Below, one piece after another: positions 884 through 13,053 of a DNA stretch of 56,463 nucleotides; position 1 is the stretch's first letter; the number at the start of each line of letters is the position of its first letter. The stretch comes from a virus. Taxonomy: Duplodnaviria > Caudoviricetes. The stretch spans positions 1 through 56,463 of IMG/VR virus record IMGVR_UViG_3300025400_000023; one strand, written 5' to 3'. The translations under genes were made by a program, and so were the position numbers. The notes under the pieces were generated by a model, which worked only from the letters and a program-made list of their open reading frames with translations, searched no databases and was not told the DNA's origin.

Positions 884-1293
884 GGCGGTAATCAAAGATG
901 TATTGGCTCTGAGATTCTTTGCCCTAAGTTTTAATCTCGCAGCTTTTTTCATTAACTACCACTGATGGTGAATGTGGGTGGACAAAGAACTGCCTAGGGA
1001 CGCACTCGGCTTCCCTAGGATTTACCACTGACGGAGCCATGCTACGTCTACGGACTTCAGGTGCTTTCCACTCTCGTGTCTAGCTTGGCCACCTGAACCC
1101 TGAGCGCCACCCGCAGACCGAACCACGGACACCCAGGGCATCACTCCCAATTGCGCTTGCACCTTCTTTGCGCCATACGTCACAGGTAAGAACGTTGTAA
1201 AACTGGTGGACTGCGGACTACGCTTTCGCTTCCTACGCTTCCCTCATGCCAGTCTAAAACCCGATAGACCCTGTAAAGACATTTGTGGAGGCG

Positions 1294-1420
1294 AAAAAAA
1301 ACCGCTTAGTGATGTATCCCAGTGGTTGTCTTGCTTAATAACTTTCCAACGTGTTATTAAGTAAGATGGTATACATCTCTAAACGGTCTTTGTACATCAC
1401 CAACCACAGCAATGTACGTT
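1294..1420 (-). ncRNA. structured leader RNA with nested stems and U-tract, CI/C4-like antisense architecture
   Basis: Stems 1301-1309/1379-1387, 1311-1317/1371-1377 and 1329-1342/1353-1366; poly-U follows on the minus strand; bulge CAACCAC is complementary to upstream GTGGTTG. Confidence 0.55.
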
Positions 1421-1421
1421 C

Positions 1422-1436
1422 ATTATAACACAGATT
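1422..1436 (-). promoter_or_regulatory. extended -10 promoter (TGTTATAAT)
   Basis: Minus strand AATCTGTGTTATAAT immediately upstream of the structured RNA. Confidence 0.6.
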
Positions 1437-1536
1437 TAAGGTATCGGCCCCCATAAAGCAGGGTAGAGGTTGCACAACACTTCTAAGAATTGCCCTCACG
1501 GAGCTAAACCGTTTTGCCGATGAGAAATAGTAGCAC

Positions 1537-1566
1537 AAAAAAAATCCCATCACATAGGATGGGATT
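1537..1566 (-). terminator. intrinsic terminator
   Basis: AATCCCATC/GATGGGATT stem followed by a U-run on the minus strand, downstream of the VRR-NUC-like gene. Confidence 0.7.
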
Positions 1567-1608
1567 AAACCAAACCCTCAAAGGAATGGCAACTGGATTG
1601 GATACATT

Positions 1609-3474: not shown

Positions 3475-4162
3475 AAAACTTATGGCAGTCAGATGCGATC
3501 TGCTGCGAACCAAACTGGAAAAGTCAGGACACAACAAGTTTGCTGGCTACAAGTATTTTGAGCTGGGTGACTTCATGCCAGCCACAATGGATTTGTTCTT
3601 CAAGCACGGCATCTGTGGTGTTGTTACTTATACACACGAGTACGCAACCTTACAGATCACAGACGTAGAAGACGGAACCATGATTGTGATTACCTCACCT
3701 ATGGCTACGGCTGCACTTAAAGGCGCACACGATATTCAGAACCTAGGAGCCGTTGAGAGTTATCAAAGGCGCTACCTTTGGATGACTGCGCTAGAGCTGA
3801 CCGAGAGCGATCCTATAGATTCAGCCGAGCCTATCAAAGATGTTCCAAAGCCAGTTGTAAGAACCCAACAGGATGTGGCTAGGGAAAAGTCTGCGGCCAA
3901 GAGTTCATATGTGCCGATAGAAGATCCATTTGCCATTCACATTTCTGTGGACCCAGAGGGTTGCACGGCTGAAGAGTTGAGCAAGGTTGTTATGGAAGCA
4001 ACAAAGATACAACTGGCCACGGCTAAATCTGTAGACGATGTGATGAAGATTTACCAAGTGAACAAAAAGATGTACGACTTGATAAAGGAAAAAGACGAGA
4101 GACAGCACGTTGCATTGCTAGGTCTTTTCAAAGAAACCAAAGATAGTTTAACCAAGGAGTAA
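3461..4162 (+). CDS. erf: ERF-family ssDNA annealing protein
   Basis: KSGHNKFAGYKYFELGDF and QNLGAVESYQRRY (ERF GxxxSYxRRY motif). Confidence 0.88.
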   Translation: MSVHKKLMAVRCDLLRTKLEKSGHNKFAGYKYFELGDFMPATMDLFFKHGICGVVTYTHEYATLQITDVEDGTMIVITSPMATAALKGAHDIQNLGAVESYQRRYLWMTALELTESDPIDSAEPIKDVPKPVVRTQQDVAREKSAAKSSYVPIEDPFAIHISVDPEGCTAEELSKVVMEATKIQLATAKSVDDVMKIYQVNKKMYDLIKEKDERQHVALLGLFKETKDSLTKE

Positions 4163-4164
4163 AT

Positions 4165-4428
4165 ATGGAATATCCAAATTCAGGCGCATTGTTTGTTAAC
4201 CAGTACAAGAAATCCGATAAAGCCCCCGATCACAAGGGTACGATTACTTTGGAGCGTTCGCTGCTCAAGAAGTTGTTGGACCTGTCCTCTGAGGATGGCA
4301 TACCAATTAAGCTAAGCGGATGGAACAGACAGGGGAAGAATGGCATGTTCATCAGTCTCAAGTACGATGACTTTGAGATTGCCAAGGTACAGGCCCCACA
4401 GATTGACGAAGGCGAAATTCCCTTCTGA
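4165..4428 (+). CDS. putative single-stranded DNA-binding protein
   Basis: NSGALF..KKSDKAPDHKG..LSGW; acidic tail ending EIPF; follows ERF. Confidence 0.7.
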   Translation: MEYPNSGALFVNQYKKSDKAPDHKGTITLERSLLKKLLDLSSEDGIPIKLSGWNRQGKNGMFISLKYDDFEIAKVQAPQIDEGEIPF

Positions 4429-4844
4429 TGAAGTCATCTAACTTCGAGGGCGTAAAAGTCGCTATGAAACAGGATAGATCGGGTTACATACTGACCCTTT
4501 CTATTCACCCTGACGAAGTGCCAGAAGAGATTCTGAGGGATTTTGTAGGCGCTCGATACCAAGTTGTGATGGTTAGGATAGGCGAAGATGAAATGCCATT
4601 CAACCGCAACAACCTTAGAAATCCTGTTCAGCTTGCAGGTATTCTTTGCAAGGACCCTATGTTCTGTAATTTCTTAGTGGAGATGGGGGAAATACAAGAA
4701 GAGTCTGAGGATGTTGTGGTCAAGTGGCTCAGGGCAAAACTAGGTGTTTTATCTAGGTCCGAGCTTAAAGATAACCGAGAAGCAGCTCAACAATTATTTG
4801 AAATCAATGAGGCATTCACAGAATGGAAACACCTAAACGCTTAG
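4428..4844 (+). CDS. hypothetical protein
   Basis: 138-aa ORF translationally coupled (TGATG). Confidence 0.75.
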   Translation: MKSSNFEGVKVAMKQDRSGYILTLSIHPDEVPEEILRDFVGARYQVVMVRIGEDEMPFNRNNLRNPVQLAGILCKDPMFCNFLVEMGEIQEESEDVVVKWLRAKLGVLSRSELKDNREAAQQLFEINEAFTEWKHLNA

Positions 4845-6408: not shown

Positions 6409-9400
6409 TTACTTATAACTCTTTCTCAACTCTTCTGCCTGCTGGGCATATCGATTGATTATCTCTTTTAAGCGGTCAATCTCTTCACGCTTTTCAGTAC
6501 CGGTCATCTGTTTGTCTTCAGTTATGACCATGATTTGCTGCCTAGCCTTGGCCATCTTCTTAGCCGTTGCATCGTACATTTTCTGCAGCGCAATCTTATC
6601 GCCCTTCTCTTCTTTAATTTCCGCGACTTTATCGAAGTCACCCAATTCAGCATAGTGGCGCATGTCAGCATAAGCCTGGTTGATCAACTTACTATTCTCA
6701 TAAAAGTCGTTCACATAAGCCGACTGATTACTGGGCAATGACTTGATAAACCCAAGAGAAACAGCATCCAGTTTCTTCATGTCAGGATAAGCGCCATCGT
6801 TAAACGGCATCATGGCATAGTAAGAAATACTCTCAGCCGTTCCACCCATCCATCCAAGGTAAGCCCTGATCAAGTAATCAATCTGAACCGGGGACAACTC
6901 TGTTCCTTCACCAGTTACAGACGCTACGGCATGAGATATTCCACCCAAAGCTTTGGCTATTGGACTTGTGGATTCAGTCATGCGCTCTTGCTTAGACAAT
7001 CTTTCTAGGCCAGCAGTCTCAATCGGAGCGCCAGTAAAGCTATCTTTGTTGGCATAAATGTCAACTAAAGGTTTAGCAAATTGGGGAATAGGATTGAGCG
7101 AGAAGGTATTGGTCAGCATACGGCTGATACTGTCACCAAACTTCTTGCCCTCAACATCCTTATCCACGATCTGCTCAAGCGTTCTCTCAGCCAACGTACC
7201 AAATGCACCGATCTCAAACGGCTTAGGAATACGCAAAGCTGCATCCATTCCAGGTAGCTTGATCCACCAGAAGTTATCCCTATCCCAGTCTTCACGCTTC
7301 TTGAAGTCATCGTCATCTTTGAATGCAAGATAAAGTAACATGGATGCCAACATCACGCTACCCGTAACTACGCTGAACTGAGCCGCCTTTTGTTTATCCG
7401 TAGCTTCAATGGGCTTGCCTGTTACCGTGTTGTAAATCACTCGGCTTGTGGGCAATATGCCATCCCTACCTAGTTTGTACAAACCTTGCAGGCGGGCATT
7501 CAAGAAGGGCACGGTGGTTGTTAGATATCTGAATGCATTAGAAGATCCTTGCATTGAGAAGTCCATCAAGTCACGAGCTTGGAAACTGGCCTCAAGATGC
7601 GACAGGCCCTTGGCTCTTAACTGTTGGTAAAGTGCAGCTCTGTTCGCAGCTTCACTTCTATTTCCCAAATCTTCATACGCATCAAATAACTTTTTCAATC
7701 CATCCTTAATGGAGTCTGAGCCAGTCAATATGGTGGTTCTATTCACGCCTTTGGCAATCAATCTCTTGACCATTGCGGCTTGATCGCCCTCGCCATTTGT
7801 GCCAAAGTTAAAGATCGCACCACCAGCCAACATGGATGCATACGCAGGGTTATCCCTAGAAGATAGTGCCCATCCGTCAATCAAGTTCTTGCCGATGTTT
7901 GTGGACAATCCTGACACGGCAGCAGACTGGATCGAATCTTTGATCAAGTTAGATACCTTGAACGCAGGAGACAGAGTTACGCCAAACCTGATGGCATTCT
8001 TAAACGCTTTGGCTACATCAAGGTAAGCATTGCTCTTACCCAGGAAGGTGATGTTAGAAATGGATTCCAACAACATGGGTTCATGCACATCATAGTAAAC
8101 CAACTCGCCATTCTCTCTGACCTTAACGGCAGTATCCTTTTTGGGTCCAGCGTTTGTGCCCAACCTTGTAACCGCTCCTATTGTTTCAGCATCCTTTAAT
8201 GTCTGAACAGCAGCTTGGTTTTTTGCCGAGGCAGATAGAATATGACTCCAGTTTCTTAGTACATTCTCCATCAAATCACCAAAAGCTTTTTCATTGTTGC
8301 CTTTTAGTTCTTTTGAGAAATACTGGCTAGTCAAAGTTGATGCAGTTTTAATGCTCTCCACATTCCCATCCTCCATCGCACGGTAGAAAGGAACGTAGAA
8401 CATATCATTGCTAAAACGCTTATACGCTTCGTCATCAAGCAATCCCATACTCTTAGCTACATCAAGCACAGACTTGTTCAGCTCTTGCATCTTTTTGCGA
8501 GTTTCCTCATACACCAAAGCGCGAGGCTTACCGTTGATGGTTCCTCTTGTGTACTCAGGCAAGTCGGCCACTAAATCTTTTAAATCATCAGATCTCTTTT
8601 CAGCTGGCAATCTAGCTTCTCTATTTAAAGCCATCCAAATCTGAAAGCGGTCCACCTCTTCACCCAAAGGCTTTAGGATATCAATCAATCCCTTTGTGCC
8701 ATTCTTAATATTCAAAGCACCGCCATCATTGAACACATGGCCATAGAACAACAAGCCTTCCAGGGCGCCATCAATACTCCTGGACATGCGAGCCATCATG
8801 TAACCCAACTGAGGCATAGCTACGCCTGTTTTTTTCTCTATATCTTCGTAAATGCCTTTAATTGATCTGAACTGGTCTACTGTTTTCTGTGCAAGATGCT
8901 TAAAGAAGTTATCCTTTAACCCATCAATGCGATCCAAAATGGTTATGTTGGGCGCATAAAACTTAGGCTGAATACGAGCAACAGCAGCAGCACTCATGCC
9001 TTGGAATGCTTTAGTATTCATCGGAGCACGTTTCTGCAACGCAGCTTGTGCCATTGCCCTGGCCTCTTGCTTGGTCTTGGGCAAATTAATAGCACTCAAT
9101 GTATCTTCAACATTCGAATCGCGTTTATTGAATAGTTCATCCTGAATCGGTGTGGGAGCAGCTTTGGCTTGTTCAGATACCTTGCCGGGCTCAAGCAGCT
9201 TACCTGTTGTTGGGGCATTGCCAGCGCGAGCAGGAACATCCTCTTGGCCATAATATTCCAAATTACCTCGGGCAAACATTTTATTCCCGGTAATCGTCAC
9301 CTCATCCGCATATTTCAACACGCGGCCTAAAGCATCCTGGAACAGATGTGTGCTCTTAGGATTAAATCCCATTTCCACGCCATCAAAACTTGGCTTATCC

Positions 9401-12400
9401 GTGGGTACATATTTACCGTCTGCACTGCCCATAGGCTCTTTATACTGAAGGCCCGCGGCGATTCTCTCCCTAATTGGCTGGCTTACTTTGAAGAAAACAT
9501 TCCTCATCGTAACAACAGGCAAGTATTTAATAACCTCCTTAGACCAATAGCCGGCCGTAGAGCCATGCGGGAACTTGTCAGACTCAGATCCCTTGTGAAT
9601 GGCCAAAACAGGTACGCCTTGGTTTTTAAGAATGTTTAAATCTAAACGCGCACCAATCAAATCACCATGATGCAAGGGAACGTTTTTCTCCATAATCCGA
9701 GCGCCTGTTTTATTTGCGCTGATGGCTTTGTCCGCTTGCTCTTTGGTAACAGGATCAACCTCTTGTGCAGTCCTGGTTTTGTATAAAGGAGACTCTTTTG
9801 CATTGAAGTAAAAGCCCTGCCTACGGGTATCCATTTCATCTGCAAATAGATGTTGAACTCTCTTGGAAAACAAAGATTGTTGCCGTATTCTGCTGCTGGC
9901 AGCAATTTGCTTGGAGCCAAAACTATAACCCTGTTGTTCAATCTCGCGACCAATCTTTCTCACATCTTCTTTGAGAATGATGTCAGTCGTGCGAACCAGT
10001 TTATCCAGAGCTGATTCAAAGTTAGGTGCAACACCTAAAACTCTGCGCACCAAATTCACCACTTGATTAAAGGCGGTCTTAGGTCCAACCATGATGCTAG
10101 ACATAAAGTCTTGCATATCACGGTCAGTAATCGACCAAGTAACCATCTCATCCACAGATTCCAATGCATTGTTTAATCTGTTGATGCGGTCCATGAAATC
10201 AGTCTTGCGACCAGCTCTAATCTCAGAAGTCAAATGTCTGTGAACTTGAACAAACAAAGCGTTTAACTCTTTGACAATTGGATCTGTACTGTTCAAAAGT
10301 TTCAACTGACCACGGGTCGCAACGTGCAGCAACTCATGCAGAATGGTTGTGTAATCCGTACCAGGTGGGTGAGTAGCCTGATTTCTTACAACCGTAGGAC
10401 CGTTGAGCTGAACGCTAACAGAAGTATTCTCTCCTGTCCTACCCCAGATAAAAGATGTTCTACCGTTGGCATTACGCATGACCACAGTTCGGGTGGCGCC
10501 ATCCAATATTTGGAAATCCATTTTCATGCCACGCTGAGCCATGCCCTGTATACGCTTGTTAACAAGATCAGCAAAGTATCTAGCCATCTTGTTAGGCGCA
10601 TTGTCCACAGCCCACTGTGCAACCTCAAGCAACGTCTTGCCCTTCAACTCCTTGGCATTTCTCTCTTGTTCTCTGGTCGTGTTGTGGCCATTGAACGCCC
10701 TGGTCGAATGCATCACATCTTCAGGAACAATCCCGCGCACAGCCATATCTTCAGCCTCACTGGGAGAGGCATGACTCATAACCGTAGGATTGCCGTCATT
10801 GTCTAAAACAACATCAAGAATGTCATCCTGACTTGCAACCGGGAGATTGGCAAAATCCTCATTATCTTCTGCGTAACGCTCTCTATTAGCCTCAAACTTA
10901 TCGGCATAACGCTTGGCCTCTTCAATCGCTTCTTGTGCTTTTAATTGCTTGGCCTTACTCTCCTCTAGCTTTCTCTCTATGCGCGATACCATACTGGCAA
11001 TCCGCTCTGGGCTCATGCCATCTGTATCTATTCCATACTGATTGGCCGCATCGTCAAGCAACTCTTGCTGATATGCCTCATATGCTTTTTCAGCAGACGT
11101 CTTTTGGTCTTCTACATTCTTTTGCTCTTCGCCATTCAATTCATCCTTGATCATCTCCTGGAGCTTACTCACACCACCGTCATACTCCATGTCGCTCTCA
11201 AGCAAATAACCATCCTCATATGCCCGCTGCGCTAGGTCATCAATTCCCAAGCCATCTTTTCTAAAAAATCCAGGCAGCTTTCTGTTTGCGTTGACCTTTC
11301 TTTGCTCGCCAGTCACATCCAAAGATTCTTCAGGCTTTAATCCATTGGAAAGCAAGAACTTCCTAAACGGAGTGGTTTTGGGGGCTTGTTCAATATCTTT
11401 GGGTTCAACATTCAAACCGAGGCGAGCCGATATTTCAGCCTTCTTCGCATCTATCTCTTCTTGCGTTAATGGTTTGTTTTCAACTTCAGAAATGCCTTTG
11501 TAAAGATTTGCCAACTCTTCTTGTCTAGCAATCTTTTCTTCTGGGCTTAAAGCTTTTAGTTGCTCCTTTTCTGCTGGGGTTAAATCTTTATATGTAGCAA
11601 GAATAGCCTTTTCTGCATCTTCTCCAGCTTGAATTCTATTTCTAGCAGCAGTTATGAAAGGATCTGCAACCGCTTCTGCTTTGAGCTGTGCATTCTTAAA
11701 AGTTTGTTCAGCTTCTTGCTGTAACTTAAATTGGTTTTGTCTTGCCGTATCCAATAGCTGCTGATTTTGAGTATTGGGACTAACACCAAATAAAGTTGTT
11801 TGAGCTGTCTTTGTCAGCGGCACACCAACTTTTTCAGCAGCTTTCATGGCCGCATCTAAAGCAGTTCTTTCGTTTTCACTGACTTCATTATGGTCAGGTT
11901 TATCTACAGGCTGAGTCTCATCGGCATGTTCTTGTTCTTTTGTTTTCTGTTCAGCCGCAGACGCCAATCGGGTTCTAACTCCACCCAACGCACCAGGCAT
12001 AACAGACATACCAAACGCAGCACCAGCAGTATCAATGTATTCATTGATCGCATTCTTATCGGTCAACGGTAAGTTAGCACCATAACGCTCGGCTGCTTGT
12101 TGCAATAACTCAGGGGGCACTTCTTTAGCCCCTGTCAAAAGCATATTGGCACCTACATCCAAGAACACATTTTTGGTAGATCCGCTAAGTCCCCTCAATG
12201 AACCCAAGCCAATTCGTTCTGCCGCATAGTCTGCCAATGCATGAGCAGCCGCAGCAGGCCCAACCTTAGACAAATCCATGTCCTCTGGGCGCTTACCCTC
12301 TTCTTCAGCTTGCTCCGCTGCACGACTACCCACTTCACCCACGCCATGATAGACCGCCTCAGCAGCACTACCCGCCATAGATCCATATGCCTTAGCACCA

Positions 12401-13053
12401 GACTTAGCCAAGGTTTTGGCTTCTTCTCCAACAATCTCTTTCTTAGCCTGATTCTCAACGTAGGTCTTAGCCGCCTCTTCACCAGACTCTTTTAGGATCT
12501 TTTCCGCAGCTTCTTTAATGCCCTTCTTGACCATTGACTTGGCCACCAAACCAGCAACACCGCCAGTTATAGTACCTTCAACAGGCAATACGCTACCAAC
12601 CAAAGCACCGCCCACGGCAGTAGCACCAGTCTCCAACATATTGGCAGCACCCGATCCAATCTGATAGGGGAGCCAATCAGTCAGTACAGTTCCTATGCCT
12701 TGGTTCCAAGCATTCGCCAAAGAGTCAGTAGGCTTAGCCATCGCCTCTTGTTTCTCTTGCGCTTCTTTAAGTTTCTCTGCACCGCCTTTAAGTAGGTAAT
12801 CAGAGATGGCGCCCTGGCCCAAAAGCTTTTTAGCACCAGCACCAAGTACGGTTTCTACACCGCCTATGGTTTCTTCTGTTTGTGGGATATAAGATTTAAA
12901 GCCACGAACAAAGTCGCTGGATTCTTCCTTGGGAGCAGGCGCAGCTGGCGGTGGAGTAGAAGCATAAGTATTCGCCCAAGACCAAGCCGTCTTAGGATCT
13001 GGTGCGTCTACTTCATAGGTCTTATCGCCAACATCAACTTGATAGGTAGGCAT
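6409..13053 (-). CDS. giant internal virion (ejection) polyvalent protein, zincin-like HExxH and LPD38-like C-terminus
   Basis: 2214 aa, last gene of the virion block; TILHELLH motif; C-terminal PFLNARLQG...LRIPKPFEIG...SPVQIDYLIRAY resembles LPD38. Confidence 0.75.
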   Translation of the reverse strand: MPTYQVDVGDKTYEVDAPDPKTAWSWANTYASTPPPAAPAPKEESSDFVRGFKSYIPQTEETIGGVETVLGAGAKKLLGQGAISDYLLKGGAEKLKEAQEKQEAMAKPTDSLANAWNQGIGTVLTDWLPYQIGSGAANMLETGATAVGGALVGSVLPVEGTITGGVAGLVAKSMVKKGIKEAAEKILKESGEEAAKTYVENQAKKEIVGEEAKTLAKSGAKAYGSMAGSAAEAVYHGVGEVGSRAAEQAEEEGKRPEDMDLSKVGPAAAAHALADYAAERIGLGSLRGLSGSTKNVFLDVGANMLLTGAKEVPPELLQQAAERYGANLPLTDKNAINEYIDTAGAAFGMSVMPGALGGVRTRLASAAEQKTKEQEHADETQPVDKPDHNEVSENERTALDAAMKAAEKVGVPLTKTAQTTLFGVSPNTQNQQLLDTARQNQFKLQQEAEQTFKNAQLKAEAVADPFITAARNRIQAGEDAEKAILATYKDLTPAEKEQLKALSPEEKIARQEELANLYKGISEVENKPLTQEEIDAKKAEISARLGLNVEPKDIEQAPKTTPFRKFLLSNGLKPEESLDVTGEQRKVNANRKLPGFFRKDGLGIDDLAQRAYEDGYLLESDMEYDGGVSKLQEMIKDELNGEEQKNVEDQKTSAEKAYEAYQQELLDDAANQYGIDTDGMSPERIASMVSRIERKLEESKAKQLKAQEAIEEAKRYADKFEANRERYAEDNEDFANLPVASQDDILDVVLDNDGNPTVMSHASPSEAEDMAVRGIVPEDVMHSTRAFNGHNTTREQERNAKELKGKTLLEVAQWAVDNAPNKMARYFADLVNKRIQGMAQRGMKMDFQILDGATRTVVMRNANGRTSFIWGRTGENTSVSVQLNGPTVVRNQATHPPGTDYTTILHELLHVATRGQLKLLNSTDPIVKELNALFVQVHRHLTSEIRAGRKTDFMDRINRLNNALESVDEMVTWSITDRDMQDFMSSIMVGPKTAFNQVVNLVRRVLGVAPNFESALDKLVRTTDIILKEDVRKIGREIEQQGYSFGSKQIAASSRIRQQSLFSKRVQHLFADEMDTRRQGFYFNAKESPLYKTRTAQEVDPVTKEQADKAISANKTGARIMEKNVPLHHGDLIGARLDLNILKNQGVPVLAIHKGSESDKFPHGSTAGYWSKEVIKYLPVVTMRNVFFKVSQPIRERIAAGLQYKEPMGSADGKYVPTDKPSFDGVEMGFNPKSTHLFQDALGRVLKYADEVTITGNKMFARGNLEYYGQEDVPARAGNAPTTGKLLEPGKVSEQAKAAPTPIQDELFNKRDSNVEDTLSAINLPKTKQEARAMAQAALQKRAPMNTKAFQGMSAAAVARIQPKFYAPNITILDRIDGLKDNFFKHLAQKTVDQFRSIKGIYEDIEKKTGVAMPQLGYMMARMSRSIDGALEGLLFYGHVFNDGGALNIKNGTKGLIDILKPLGEEVDRFQIWMALNREARLPAEKRSDDLKDLVADLPEYTRGTINGKPRALVYEETRKKMQELNKSVLDVAKSMGLLDDEAYKRFSNDMFYVPFYRAMEDGNVESIKTASTLTSQYFSKELKGNNEKAFGDLMENVLRNWSHILSASAKNQAAVQTLKDAETIGAVTRLGTNAGPKKDTAVKVRENGELVYYDVHEPMLLESISNITFLGKSNAYLDVAKAFKNAIRFGVTLSPAFKVSNLIKDSIQSAAVSGLSTNIGKNLIDGWALSSRDNPAYASMLAGGAIFNFGTNGEGDQAAMVKRLIAKGVNRTTILTGSDSIKDGLKKLFDAYEDLGNRSEAANRAALYQQLRAKGLSHLEASFQARDLMDFSMQGSSNAFRYLTTTVPFLNARLQGLYKLGRDGILPTSRVIYNTVTGKPIEATDKQKAAQFSVVTGSVMLASMLLYLAFKDDDDFKKREDWDRDNFWWIKLPGMDAALRIPKPFEIGAFGTLAERTLEQIVDKDVEGKKFGDSISRMLTNTFSLNPIPQFAKPLVDIYANKDSFTGAPIETAGLERLSKQERMTESTSPIAKALGGISHAVASVTGEGTELSPVQIDYLIRAYLGWMGGTAESISYYAMMPFNDGAYPDMKKLDAVSLGFIKSLPSNQSAYVNDFYENSKLINQAYADMRHYAELGDFDKVAEIKEEKGDKIALQKMYDATAKKMAKARQQIMVITEDKQMTGTEKREEIDRLKEIINRYAQQAEELRKSYK

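Follow-up and report, generated by a model that had tools for sequence, protein, structure and literature searches.

A matching yet strain-varying loop and bulge suggest an RNA lock and key at the stop signal before a large phage RNA

The locus and its predicted RNA

The DNA analysed here, 56,463 bases long and referred to throughout as the window, is the whole of one IMG/VR virus record (IMGVR_UViG_3300025400_000023), estimated to be 89% complete. On its minus strand a nuclease gene is followed by a short structured RNA, the element that is the subject of this report, then by a large structured non-coding RNA and the first gene of a protein operon (Table 1). The element is predicted to start behind an extended -10 promoter, to form a hairpin (H1) and, after an A-rich linker of 3-4 nucleotides (nt), a long interrupted hairpin (H2), and to end in a U8 tract. 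The locus had been singled out by a first-pass annotation. The promoter, the word GTGGTTG, the bulge, the apical loop and the U8 tract that it named are all present, and the 7-mer that it called 'leader' is the loop of H1. A 7-nt bulge in H2 is the exact complement of that loop, and the two are called here the lock and the key.

Table 1. Features of the element and of its neighbours in the window (MFE, minimum free energy; RBS, ribosome-binding site)
Feature	Position	Strand	Basis and details
Nuclease gene upstream of the element	1926-1609	minus	PHROG 93 'endonuclease', E 7.5e-8
Intrinsic terminator of the upstream nuclease gene	1566-1543	minus	terminator scan
Extended -10 promoter element TGTTATAAT	1430-1422	minus	predicted, read in sequence
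H1, 5′-terminal hairpin	1417-1392	minus	MFE fold; stem GUACAUUGC/GUGAUGUAC; 8-nt loop U+GUGGUUG
H1 loop 7-mer GUGGUUG, 'key'	1407-1401	minus	sequence, alignment
H2, long interrupted hairpin	1387-1301	minus	MFE fold
H2 bulge CAACCAC, 'lock'	1328-1322	minus	3′ side of H2, immediately above the terminator stem
U8 tract of the predicted intrinsic terminator	1300-1293	minus	read in sequence
Module a, large structured non-coding RNA	~1272-955 (boundaries approximate)	minus	identity, RNAalifold consensus
Second extended -10 promoter TGTGATATAAT	822-812	minus	predicted; followed by RBS AAGGAGG and ATG at 788
First protein gene	788-612	minus	own promoter and ribosome site

H2 is composed of a lower stem (P2a), a 3-bp step, the 7-nt bulge, an upper stem and a 10-nt apical loop of sequence ACGTTGGAAA. 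The lower stem is also the terminator stem: a G+C-rich helix, GACCG.../...CGGU, abuts the U8 tract, an arrangement that predicts an intrinsic (Rho-independent) terminator. The folding energy of the 133-nt RNA is -48.2 kcal/mol, compared with -25.7 +/- 3.4 kcal/mol in shuffled sequences (z = -6.7), and none of 200 shuffles is as stable. The nuclease gene upstream ends in an intrinsic terminator of its own, and the element is therefore likely to be a separate transcription unit.

Homologues of the element were collected by way of the flanking gene. A search of viral contigs with the nuclease protein yielded 116 relatives. The analysis continued with the 80 best loci, and the element was located behind the nuclease gene by profile searches. 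A covariance model (R1), which was built without the pseudoknot and whose E-values are rough, matches on the same strand in 40 of these 80 loci and in the window, at one place per locus and always behind the nuclease gene. These 41 loci hold 38 distinct elements. The remaining 22 of 63 matches are weak reverse-strand echoes at the same places; 21 full-length members score 102-133 bits on the strand of the element versus 17-40 bits on the opposite one. An RNA made from the opposite strand was considered and rejected, the reverse-strand scores being mere echoes of hairpin symmetry. The window and each of three complete relatives carry a single element per genome.

Weaker matches to R1 have an altered H2, in a short form or with a three-way junction, and retain the promoter, H1, the complementary segment and the U tract. 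Eight more loci have the large downstream RNA and no match to R1. By eye, six of these (L029, L031, L036, L043, L044, L058) show the same layout with a 6-8-nt match; the layout is imperfect in L055, and none was seen in L037.

The signals at the two ends of the element are conserved. A -10-like hexamer lies 0-12 nt before H1, accompanied either by a TTGMMN -35 hexamer at 15-20 nt or by a TGn extension, in 36 of the 38 distinct elements. A good -35 hexamer was not found for the element promoter in the window. This conserved position of the -10 directly before H1 indicates that H1 forms the extreme 5′ end of the predicted RNA. At the 3′ end, a run of at least four T residues is present in all 41 of the loci. 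A structured minus-strand RNA with its own promoter and intrinsic terminator, as the first-pass annotation proposed, is thus supported at the level of prediction. Within the element, the longest closed ATG open reading frame (ORF) ranges from 0 to 33 codons, is lacking altogether in 10 of 38 distinct elements and is not conserved as a leader peptide. A protein-coding reading of the overlapping ORFs at 1335-1553 (minus) and 1206-1364 (plus) is likewise unsupported.

Covariation and turnover of the loop and bulge

The complementarity between the H1 loop and the H2 bulge is far beyond chance. A perfect match of at least 7 nt between the loop and a segment of H2 is present in 36 of the 38 distinct elements, and the other two have 6 nt; when the loop of one locus is compared with the H2 of a locus with an unlike loop, 7 nt is reached in only 8 of 1356 cases. 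The complementary segment is always on the 3′ side, directly atop the lower stem that abuts the U tract. This position is kept in four H2 architectures: the main form, the short H2, the three-way-junction H2 and the L029 type.

Covariation was scored on an alignment (A1) of the window and 23 loci (24 sequences); L006, which is identical to L005, was omitted. Divergent structural classes were aligned partly by eye, and the structure was written by hand with the loop/bulge helix entered as a pseudoknot. Standard pairs fill 93.1% of cells, versus 81.3% in column shuffles, of which none in 500 reaches the observed value, and 30-43% in controls with the partner slid out of register. Both sides change in 32 of 44 pairs. 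The ordinary stems contribute to this signal: the H1 stem (helix 1) is 95.1% paired, with changes on both sides in four of six pairs, and H2 (helices 3-5) is 89-96% paired, with such changes in 23 of 31 pairs, including 12 of 17 in its lower stem. Many G-U pairs in these stems are compatible with the minus strand only.

The loop/bulge helix itself (columns 14-20 with 100-106) is 97% paired and contains a single G-U. Its first two pairs, G-C and U-A, are invariant, matching the opening GU that all homologues share in the loop 7-mer. The remaining five loop bases are variable: their five pairs, of seven in the helix, are all altered on both sides, and at two of the positions every one of the four Watson-Crick types occurs. 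The covariation of bulge and leader that the first-pass annotation had named as its test is therefore found in the homologues. These data show a helix under strong selection for complementarity whose sequence turns over fast.

The turnover is concentrated in the code. The 38 distinct elements carry 21 different loop words. Across the 20 full-length members of A1, the two central loop/bulge pairs supply the four columns that vary most in the RNA, at 1.95 and 1.90 bits, and the next most variable paired columns reach ~1.2 bits. Even elements with 84-86% identity in the rest of their sequence disagree at 4-5 of the five variable loop positions. Conversely, the loop GTCGGAG recurs on several backbones and ahead of different downstream modules.

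Comparisons of the flanks point in the same direction. Among nine loci, picked for a shared promoter type and a shared following hairpin module, conservation is lower in the element than in either flank (60 nt upstream and 110 nt downstream) in 30 of 36 pairs. Identity upstream, within and downstream of the element is 98.3, 74.4 and 90.9% for L005 and L011, and 95.0, 61.8 and 80.9% for L009 and L013, which also differ in H2 architecture. Contigs from four metagenome runs were compared as well; they are DNA only and thus silent on expression. In three runs, contigs of related, co-occurring strains cover 1100-1325 and 1413/1452-1650 of the window and skip 1328-1403. One contig, 96% identical across 1413-1549, leads from there into another H1, with the loop GTGAGAA. 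Together, the loop alleles, the flank comparison and the contig breaks indicate that the element is exchanged like a cassette and that the code turns over faster than its scaffold.

These patterns support the view that the loop/bulge pair behaves like a specificity determinant, hypervariable and always compensated. Cassette exchange together with fast turnover of the code is not what one would expect of a contact with a purely structural role. Neutral compensatory drift should also be slow in a short helix with almost no G-U intermediates.

Other pairings proposed in the first-pass annotation did not fare as well. The apical loop (ACGTT) was thought to pair with the leader (AACGT), but among 20 sequences with a comparable loop a match of at least 5 nt to the 5′ end exists only in the window and, marginally, in L021. 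Invasion of the terminator strand TACATCAC by leader GTGATGTA (the H1 strand GUGAUGUAC) is favourable in the window (-18.1 kcal/mol, z = -4.0) and is not conserved: the mean z is -0.7 over 24 sequences, with values below -2 confined to the window and L045. Two 6-mers suggested as downstream targets, at 1192-1197 and 1121-1126, lie inside motifs of the large RNA, CTACAACGTTC (invariant in 13 module-a sequences) and GTCCGTGGTT (present in 5 of 13). They were discarded because loci with quite different loops keep these motifs unchanged. Nor did the window or the 40 loci show an extra copy of the code at a consistent place within 3 kb, such as would correspond to seqC of P4 or to a2/b2 at the ribosome site of the first gene. 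Genome-wide, in the window and three complete relatives, extra copies on both strands number 1-13 per genome versus ~7-10 expected, and none is in a comparable context.

The large RNAs and the phage that carries them

The RNA behind the terminator in the window, here called module a, is G+C-rich and starts ~20 nt past the U tract. Its length is 320-390 nt across loci. Nucleotide identity is 85% to L004 over 1312-959 of the window and 75-81% to several other loci; copies include L004:3679-4001, L005:3856-4225 and L040:4227-4576. An RNAalifold consensus of 12 sequences has 72 pairs, of which 40 are compensatory, and includes GNRA-capped hairpins. The motifs CTATCGGG, CTACAACGTTC, GGCTCC, CCTAGGCAG and CACCA are single-stranded and invariant. 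Module a matches no Rfam family, and the stretch downstream of the element contains no credible ORF.

Other relatives carry different RNAs in this position. A variant, d, shares the 5′ part of module a (L035, L020, L009, L030, L052). Module b, ~250-330 nt long, takes its place in L013 (3675-4003), L010 (4475-4799), L028 (5154-5408) and ~20 more; its consensus from 14 sequences has 34 pairs, 21 of them compensatory, and the invariant motifs AGCCTGT, GAGGGACT and CCCTTGG. A third type, c (L011, L008, L002), is known by eye only. By nhmmer, a module of type a, b or d starts 10-130 nt past the U tract in 30 of the 40 element loci, to which three more by eye and the window can be added. Interchangeable large RNAs thus occupy one and the same locus. 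These appear to be new families of large structured phage RNA, at least two in number, that Rfam models do not recognise.

Additional pieces accompany the large RNAs in some relatives. A three-way hairpin module of ~100 nt precedes the large RNA in ~18 loci (for example L005:3745-3851) and is absent from the window. It has an outer stem GAGACTGGGAC.../...GTTCCAGTCTC and an inner stem GGGTTAGCGCC, and is followed by a pyrimidine-rich motif, TCTCTCCTCCTAC. In seven loci the purine-rich apical loop of H2 is complementary to this motif, with one compensatory change (GGAGAGA/TCTCTCC in L011 versus GGAGGGA/TCCCTCC in L021); members with a short H2 retain the motif without a matching apical loop. At the 3′ end of module a, L005 has a 117-amino-acid ORF (4215-4568) with an HNH-nuclease-like motif, seen by eye, and the last bases of the module double as its ribosome site. 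By alignment the ORF is also present in L007, L014, L029 and L039; neither the window nor L004 has it.

How the large RNA is transcribed bears directly on the role of the element. In the window, a promoter scan that needs a -35 hexamer, and so would miss an extended -10 promoter, found no site between the terminator and module a. The first protein gene has its own promoter, TGTGATATAAT, which makes the protein operon independent of the element promoter and leaves a non-coding unit, from 1430 to ~830, flanked by two promoters. Inspection by eye showed comparable promoters beyond the large RNA in L027, L028, L031 and L043. The large RNA therefore appears to depend on transcription that passes the terminator of the element, and module a is presumed to be the payload of such read-through. 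What comes next after the terminator is a large non-coding RNA, not a protein operon, and the next protein gene does not need the element promoter.

The phage itself looks lytic, and nothing points to lysogeny. Pfam searches of 54 ORFs identify structural genes, the terminase subunits TerS and TerL, an Erf-type annealing protein, a PD-(D/E)XK nuclease, a helicase and a Toprim protein, and PHROGs, on 19 ORFs, adds a ParB-like protein and a primase. A 2214-aa ORF at 6409-13053 (minus) carries the 'large polyvalent protein associated domain 38' (E 2.2e-36). No RNA polymerase or DNA polymerase domain was found among the 54 ORFs by Pfam. Neither the 54 ORFs covered by Pfam nor the 19 covered by PHROGs include an integrase, a repressor or an antirepressor, in line with the first-pass remark that no integrase or CI repressor is visible.

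The element has so far been seen in uncultured relatives. By terminase, the closest cultured phages are 023Pt_psg01, DSL-LC04 and the Pelagibacter phages HTVC027P and HTVC023P, at 53-58% identity, and the covariance model finds nothing in these four. Positions 900-1700 of the window have no blastn match among GenBank phages, and an exact 26-nt pattern gave no match in viral contigs. Across 185,579 species genomes the nuclease gene has only three distant loci, none with the element, and no prophage copies were reached by way of this flanking gene. The metagenome runs that contain the locus are freshwater. Full-text literature searches found no description of the element, which is not proof that it is unpublished.

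Candidate roles and genomic surroundings

The favoured explanation, to which we assign a probability of roughly 45%, is that the loop and bulge form a strain-specific kissing pair that gates the terminator and works like the CI RNA of phage P4. A leader RNA of ~125 nt would be made by the host RNA polymerase from the element promoter and would fold into H1 and the long terminator hairpin H2. The H1 loop and the 7-nt bulge atop the terminator stem would then form a Watson-Crick kissing helix, with the variable bases as the code of the strain, and this pair would decide between termination and continuation into the large structured RNA. Abundant terminated leader may also act in trans on nascent leaders of the same specificity. 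It could occupy the early-exposed H1 loop during the ~100 nt of transcription before the bulge emerges, providing feedback on read-through, as the CI RNA of P4 does by way of seqA in the leader from which it comes. In one possible direction, the intramolecular contact hinders completion of the lower stem and favours read-through, and the trans-acting RNA restores termination; the reverse is equally possible.

Gating is suggested by the architecture: the RNA is promoter-proximal, H1 is made first, the bulge sits atop the terminator stem, and the large RNA beyond has no recognised promoter. Pairing between molecules as well as within them may be the reason that a variable code exists. We infer each of the four links: conditional termination, its control by the pairing, contact between molecules and the direction of the effect. 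A matching yet strain-varying loop and bulge nevertheless suggest a strain-specific RNA lock and key at the stop signal before a large RNA. A bolder statement is that lytic freshwater phages possess a 7-bp kissing code, exchanged as a cassette and with at least 21 alleles, by which a terminated leader recognises only its own kind and gates, or assembles with, large ornate RNAs of a new class. This is possible but doubtful.

Several observations weigh against gating by a kissing pair. There is no conserved antiterminator fold across the 24 sequences of A1, and the apparently strong terminator may well act constitutively. Promoter, 3′ end and read-through are all predictions. The loop/bulge helix could be purely intramolecular: by a hand estimate of helix rise versus linker length, the contact within one folded RNA is probably near the steric limit and yet possible. 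No third copy of the code shows action on a separate target. Exchange of cassettes by recombination could, even with no diversifying selection, make the code look more variable than it is. The large RNA could have an unusual promoter, because the promoter scan also missed the extended -10 promoter of the element. Finally, the selective reason for strain-specific self-regulation is conjecture, given that the phage looks lytic.

The proposal of an attenuation switch in the first-pass annotation thus stands in part: the predicted terminator and the variable bulge/leader pair favour it, but the proposed antiterminator and apical-loop pairings are not conserved. An immunity switch in the lysogenic sense is unsupported by a genome with no integrase, repressor or antirepressor. 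The initial observation is partly confirmed, and the interpretation placed on it is partly supported.

To our knowledge, RNA-only specificity switches in phages are confined to a handful of temperate coliphage systems (P4, P1/P7 and N15). The specificity sequences of P4 and phiR73 differ, with compensating changes, and hypervariability with constant compensation is ascribed to the determinants of immunity in P4 CI and P1/P7 C4. The C4 RNA of P1 and P7 and the CA RNA of N15 block translation or transcription of antirepressor operons in prophages and are cut out by RNase P. Like the element, these are small phage RNAs from the leader that they regulate, with loops that pair with the leader and a specificity that varies between phages. 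Unlike P1 C4, the element has no match to the Rfam C4 model, whose family also takes in P4 CI and isrK-like RNAs.

According to PMC4825925, the CI RNA of P4 is processed from an untranslated leader and pairs with the upstream and downstream sequences seqA and seqC, resulting in premature termination. The element resembles this system in having an untranslated leader behind a promoter, an unpaired hairpin sequence that complements the upstream leader, and premature termination as the likely outcome. It differs in that only two partners exist, with no downstream copy like seqC; in that the upstream partner sits in a hairpin loop at the extreme 5′ end; and in that a large non-coding RNA follows, not replication genes, in a phage with no sign of lysogeny. 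It also has no Rfam match in sequence or structure. Across the whole window, none of 4227 Rfam families reaches its gathering score; at E<=10, searches of 900-1700 and of the 151-nt element alone (1285-1435) return only generic terminator- and miRNA-like hairpins far under gathering. Six related loci gave two tRNAs and noise only. The element is therefore akin in principle to the leader RNAs of P4, P1 and N15, but it matches no family model of theirs, has no downstream copy and lies outside an immunity context.

A second group of precedents comes from plasmids. In attenuation systems such as pT181, pIP501 and pAMbeta1 and in the copy control of ColE1 and R1, a small RNA kisses a loop of the nascent leader before the terminator, and the loop sequences set incompatibility; the regulator is a counter-transcript from the opposite strand. 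The element similarly uses a 5′ hairpin loop. Unlike the plasmid attenuators, however, it has both partners on the same strand of one short transcript.

Alternatively, the element may be a stand-alone small RNA (sRNA) with a structural pseudoknot, in which the terminator is constitutive, the helix is intramolecular and serves folding, nuclease resistance or protein recognition, and the large RNA is independent. A promoter, a 5′ hairpin, an A/U-rich linker, a long terminator hairpin and a U tract are the ordinary anatomy of a bacterial sRNA. The lack of a conserved antiterminator, the single element per genome and the chance-level number of code copies elsewhere in the window and three complete relatives also fit this view. 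However, an internal contact gives no reason for the loop/bulge columns to be the most variable of all, for 21 alleles in 38 elements or for the near absence of G-U pairs. It also leaves unexplained the constant position of the segment atop the terminator stem in four H2 architectures, and a large RNA without a recognisable promoter. On balance a stand-alone sRNA seems rather unlikely.

Another alternative is assembly between molecules, in which loop and bulge pair hand in hand between RNA copies to give dimers or rings, possibly attached to the large RNA, and the variable code keeps the RNAs of co-infecting relatives unmixed. The model for such an arrangement is the prohead RNA (pRNA) of phi29, in which a hairpin loop and an internal bulge are complementary and covary between relatives. 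Neighbouring pRNA molecules pair through 2-4 bases and so build a ring at the portal, in phages that have no terminase and replicate by protein priming. Some large ornate RNAs also form multimers through loop contacts, and a large, ornate-looking RNA adjoins the element. A contact within one molecule that is near the steric limit, by the hand estimate above, also fits this view. Unlike that of pRNA, however, the helix of the element has seven pairs and sits on a terminator stem. A strong conserved terminator separates the element from the large RNA, the code is uncorrelated with the type of downstream module, and a phage with TerS and TerL has no need of a packaging RNA. Neither a pRNA model nor any other in Rfam is matched, and assembly of this kind is improbable.

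True membership of the P1 C4/P4 CI family, as an immunity RNA of a temperate phage or plasmid prophage, is highly improbable: the unpaired bulge complementary to the leader, the adjacent terminator, the variable specificity and, if the record is circularly permuted, the ParB-like and helicase/primase genes further along the same strand are outweighed by the absence of an Rfam match even at E<=10, of a downstream target copy and of lysogeny genes, by the absence of the element from the three distant loci of the flanking gene in species genomes, and by a protein operon with its own promoter.

If a kissing pair does gate the terminator, the specificity logic of the coliphage systems recurs in an RNA of unrelated fold, carried by uncultured freshwater phages that appear to be lytic. 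The ~21 orthogonal 7-nt codes, each with its partner, form a natural library that could serve as a test bed for short kissing helices at a terminator and as a source of possible orthogonal parts for synthetic regulation. The element also points to at least two families of large structured phage RNA outside Rfam models. Should the code work between molecules, co-infecting lytic phages would compete in part by RNA self-recognition, amounting to RNA-only kin discrimination outside lysogeny.

The intergenic region after the nuclease gene seems to be an island of RNA genes. In L032, the nuclease gene is separated from the element by two tRNA genes (3541-3615 and 3639-3708; Rfam 55 and 42.5 bits); no tRNA is present in the window. 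Weak Rfam matches at 1537-1606 (minus) to a Betaproteobacteria toxic sRNA (25 bits), anti-hemB and RyhB, all far under gathering, are meaningless, because they align solely to the hairpin and U tract of the nuclease-gene terminator. Between that terminator and the element promoter, the stretch 1452-1518 (~66 bp) has a contig depth 5-15 times that of its surroundings in four metagenome runs. This raised depth, together with many contigs that diverge at both of its ends, indicates that the stretch occurs in many different contexts. Among five related contigs checked, it is present in one, that of L004, at 78% identity.

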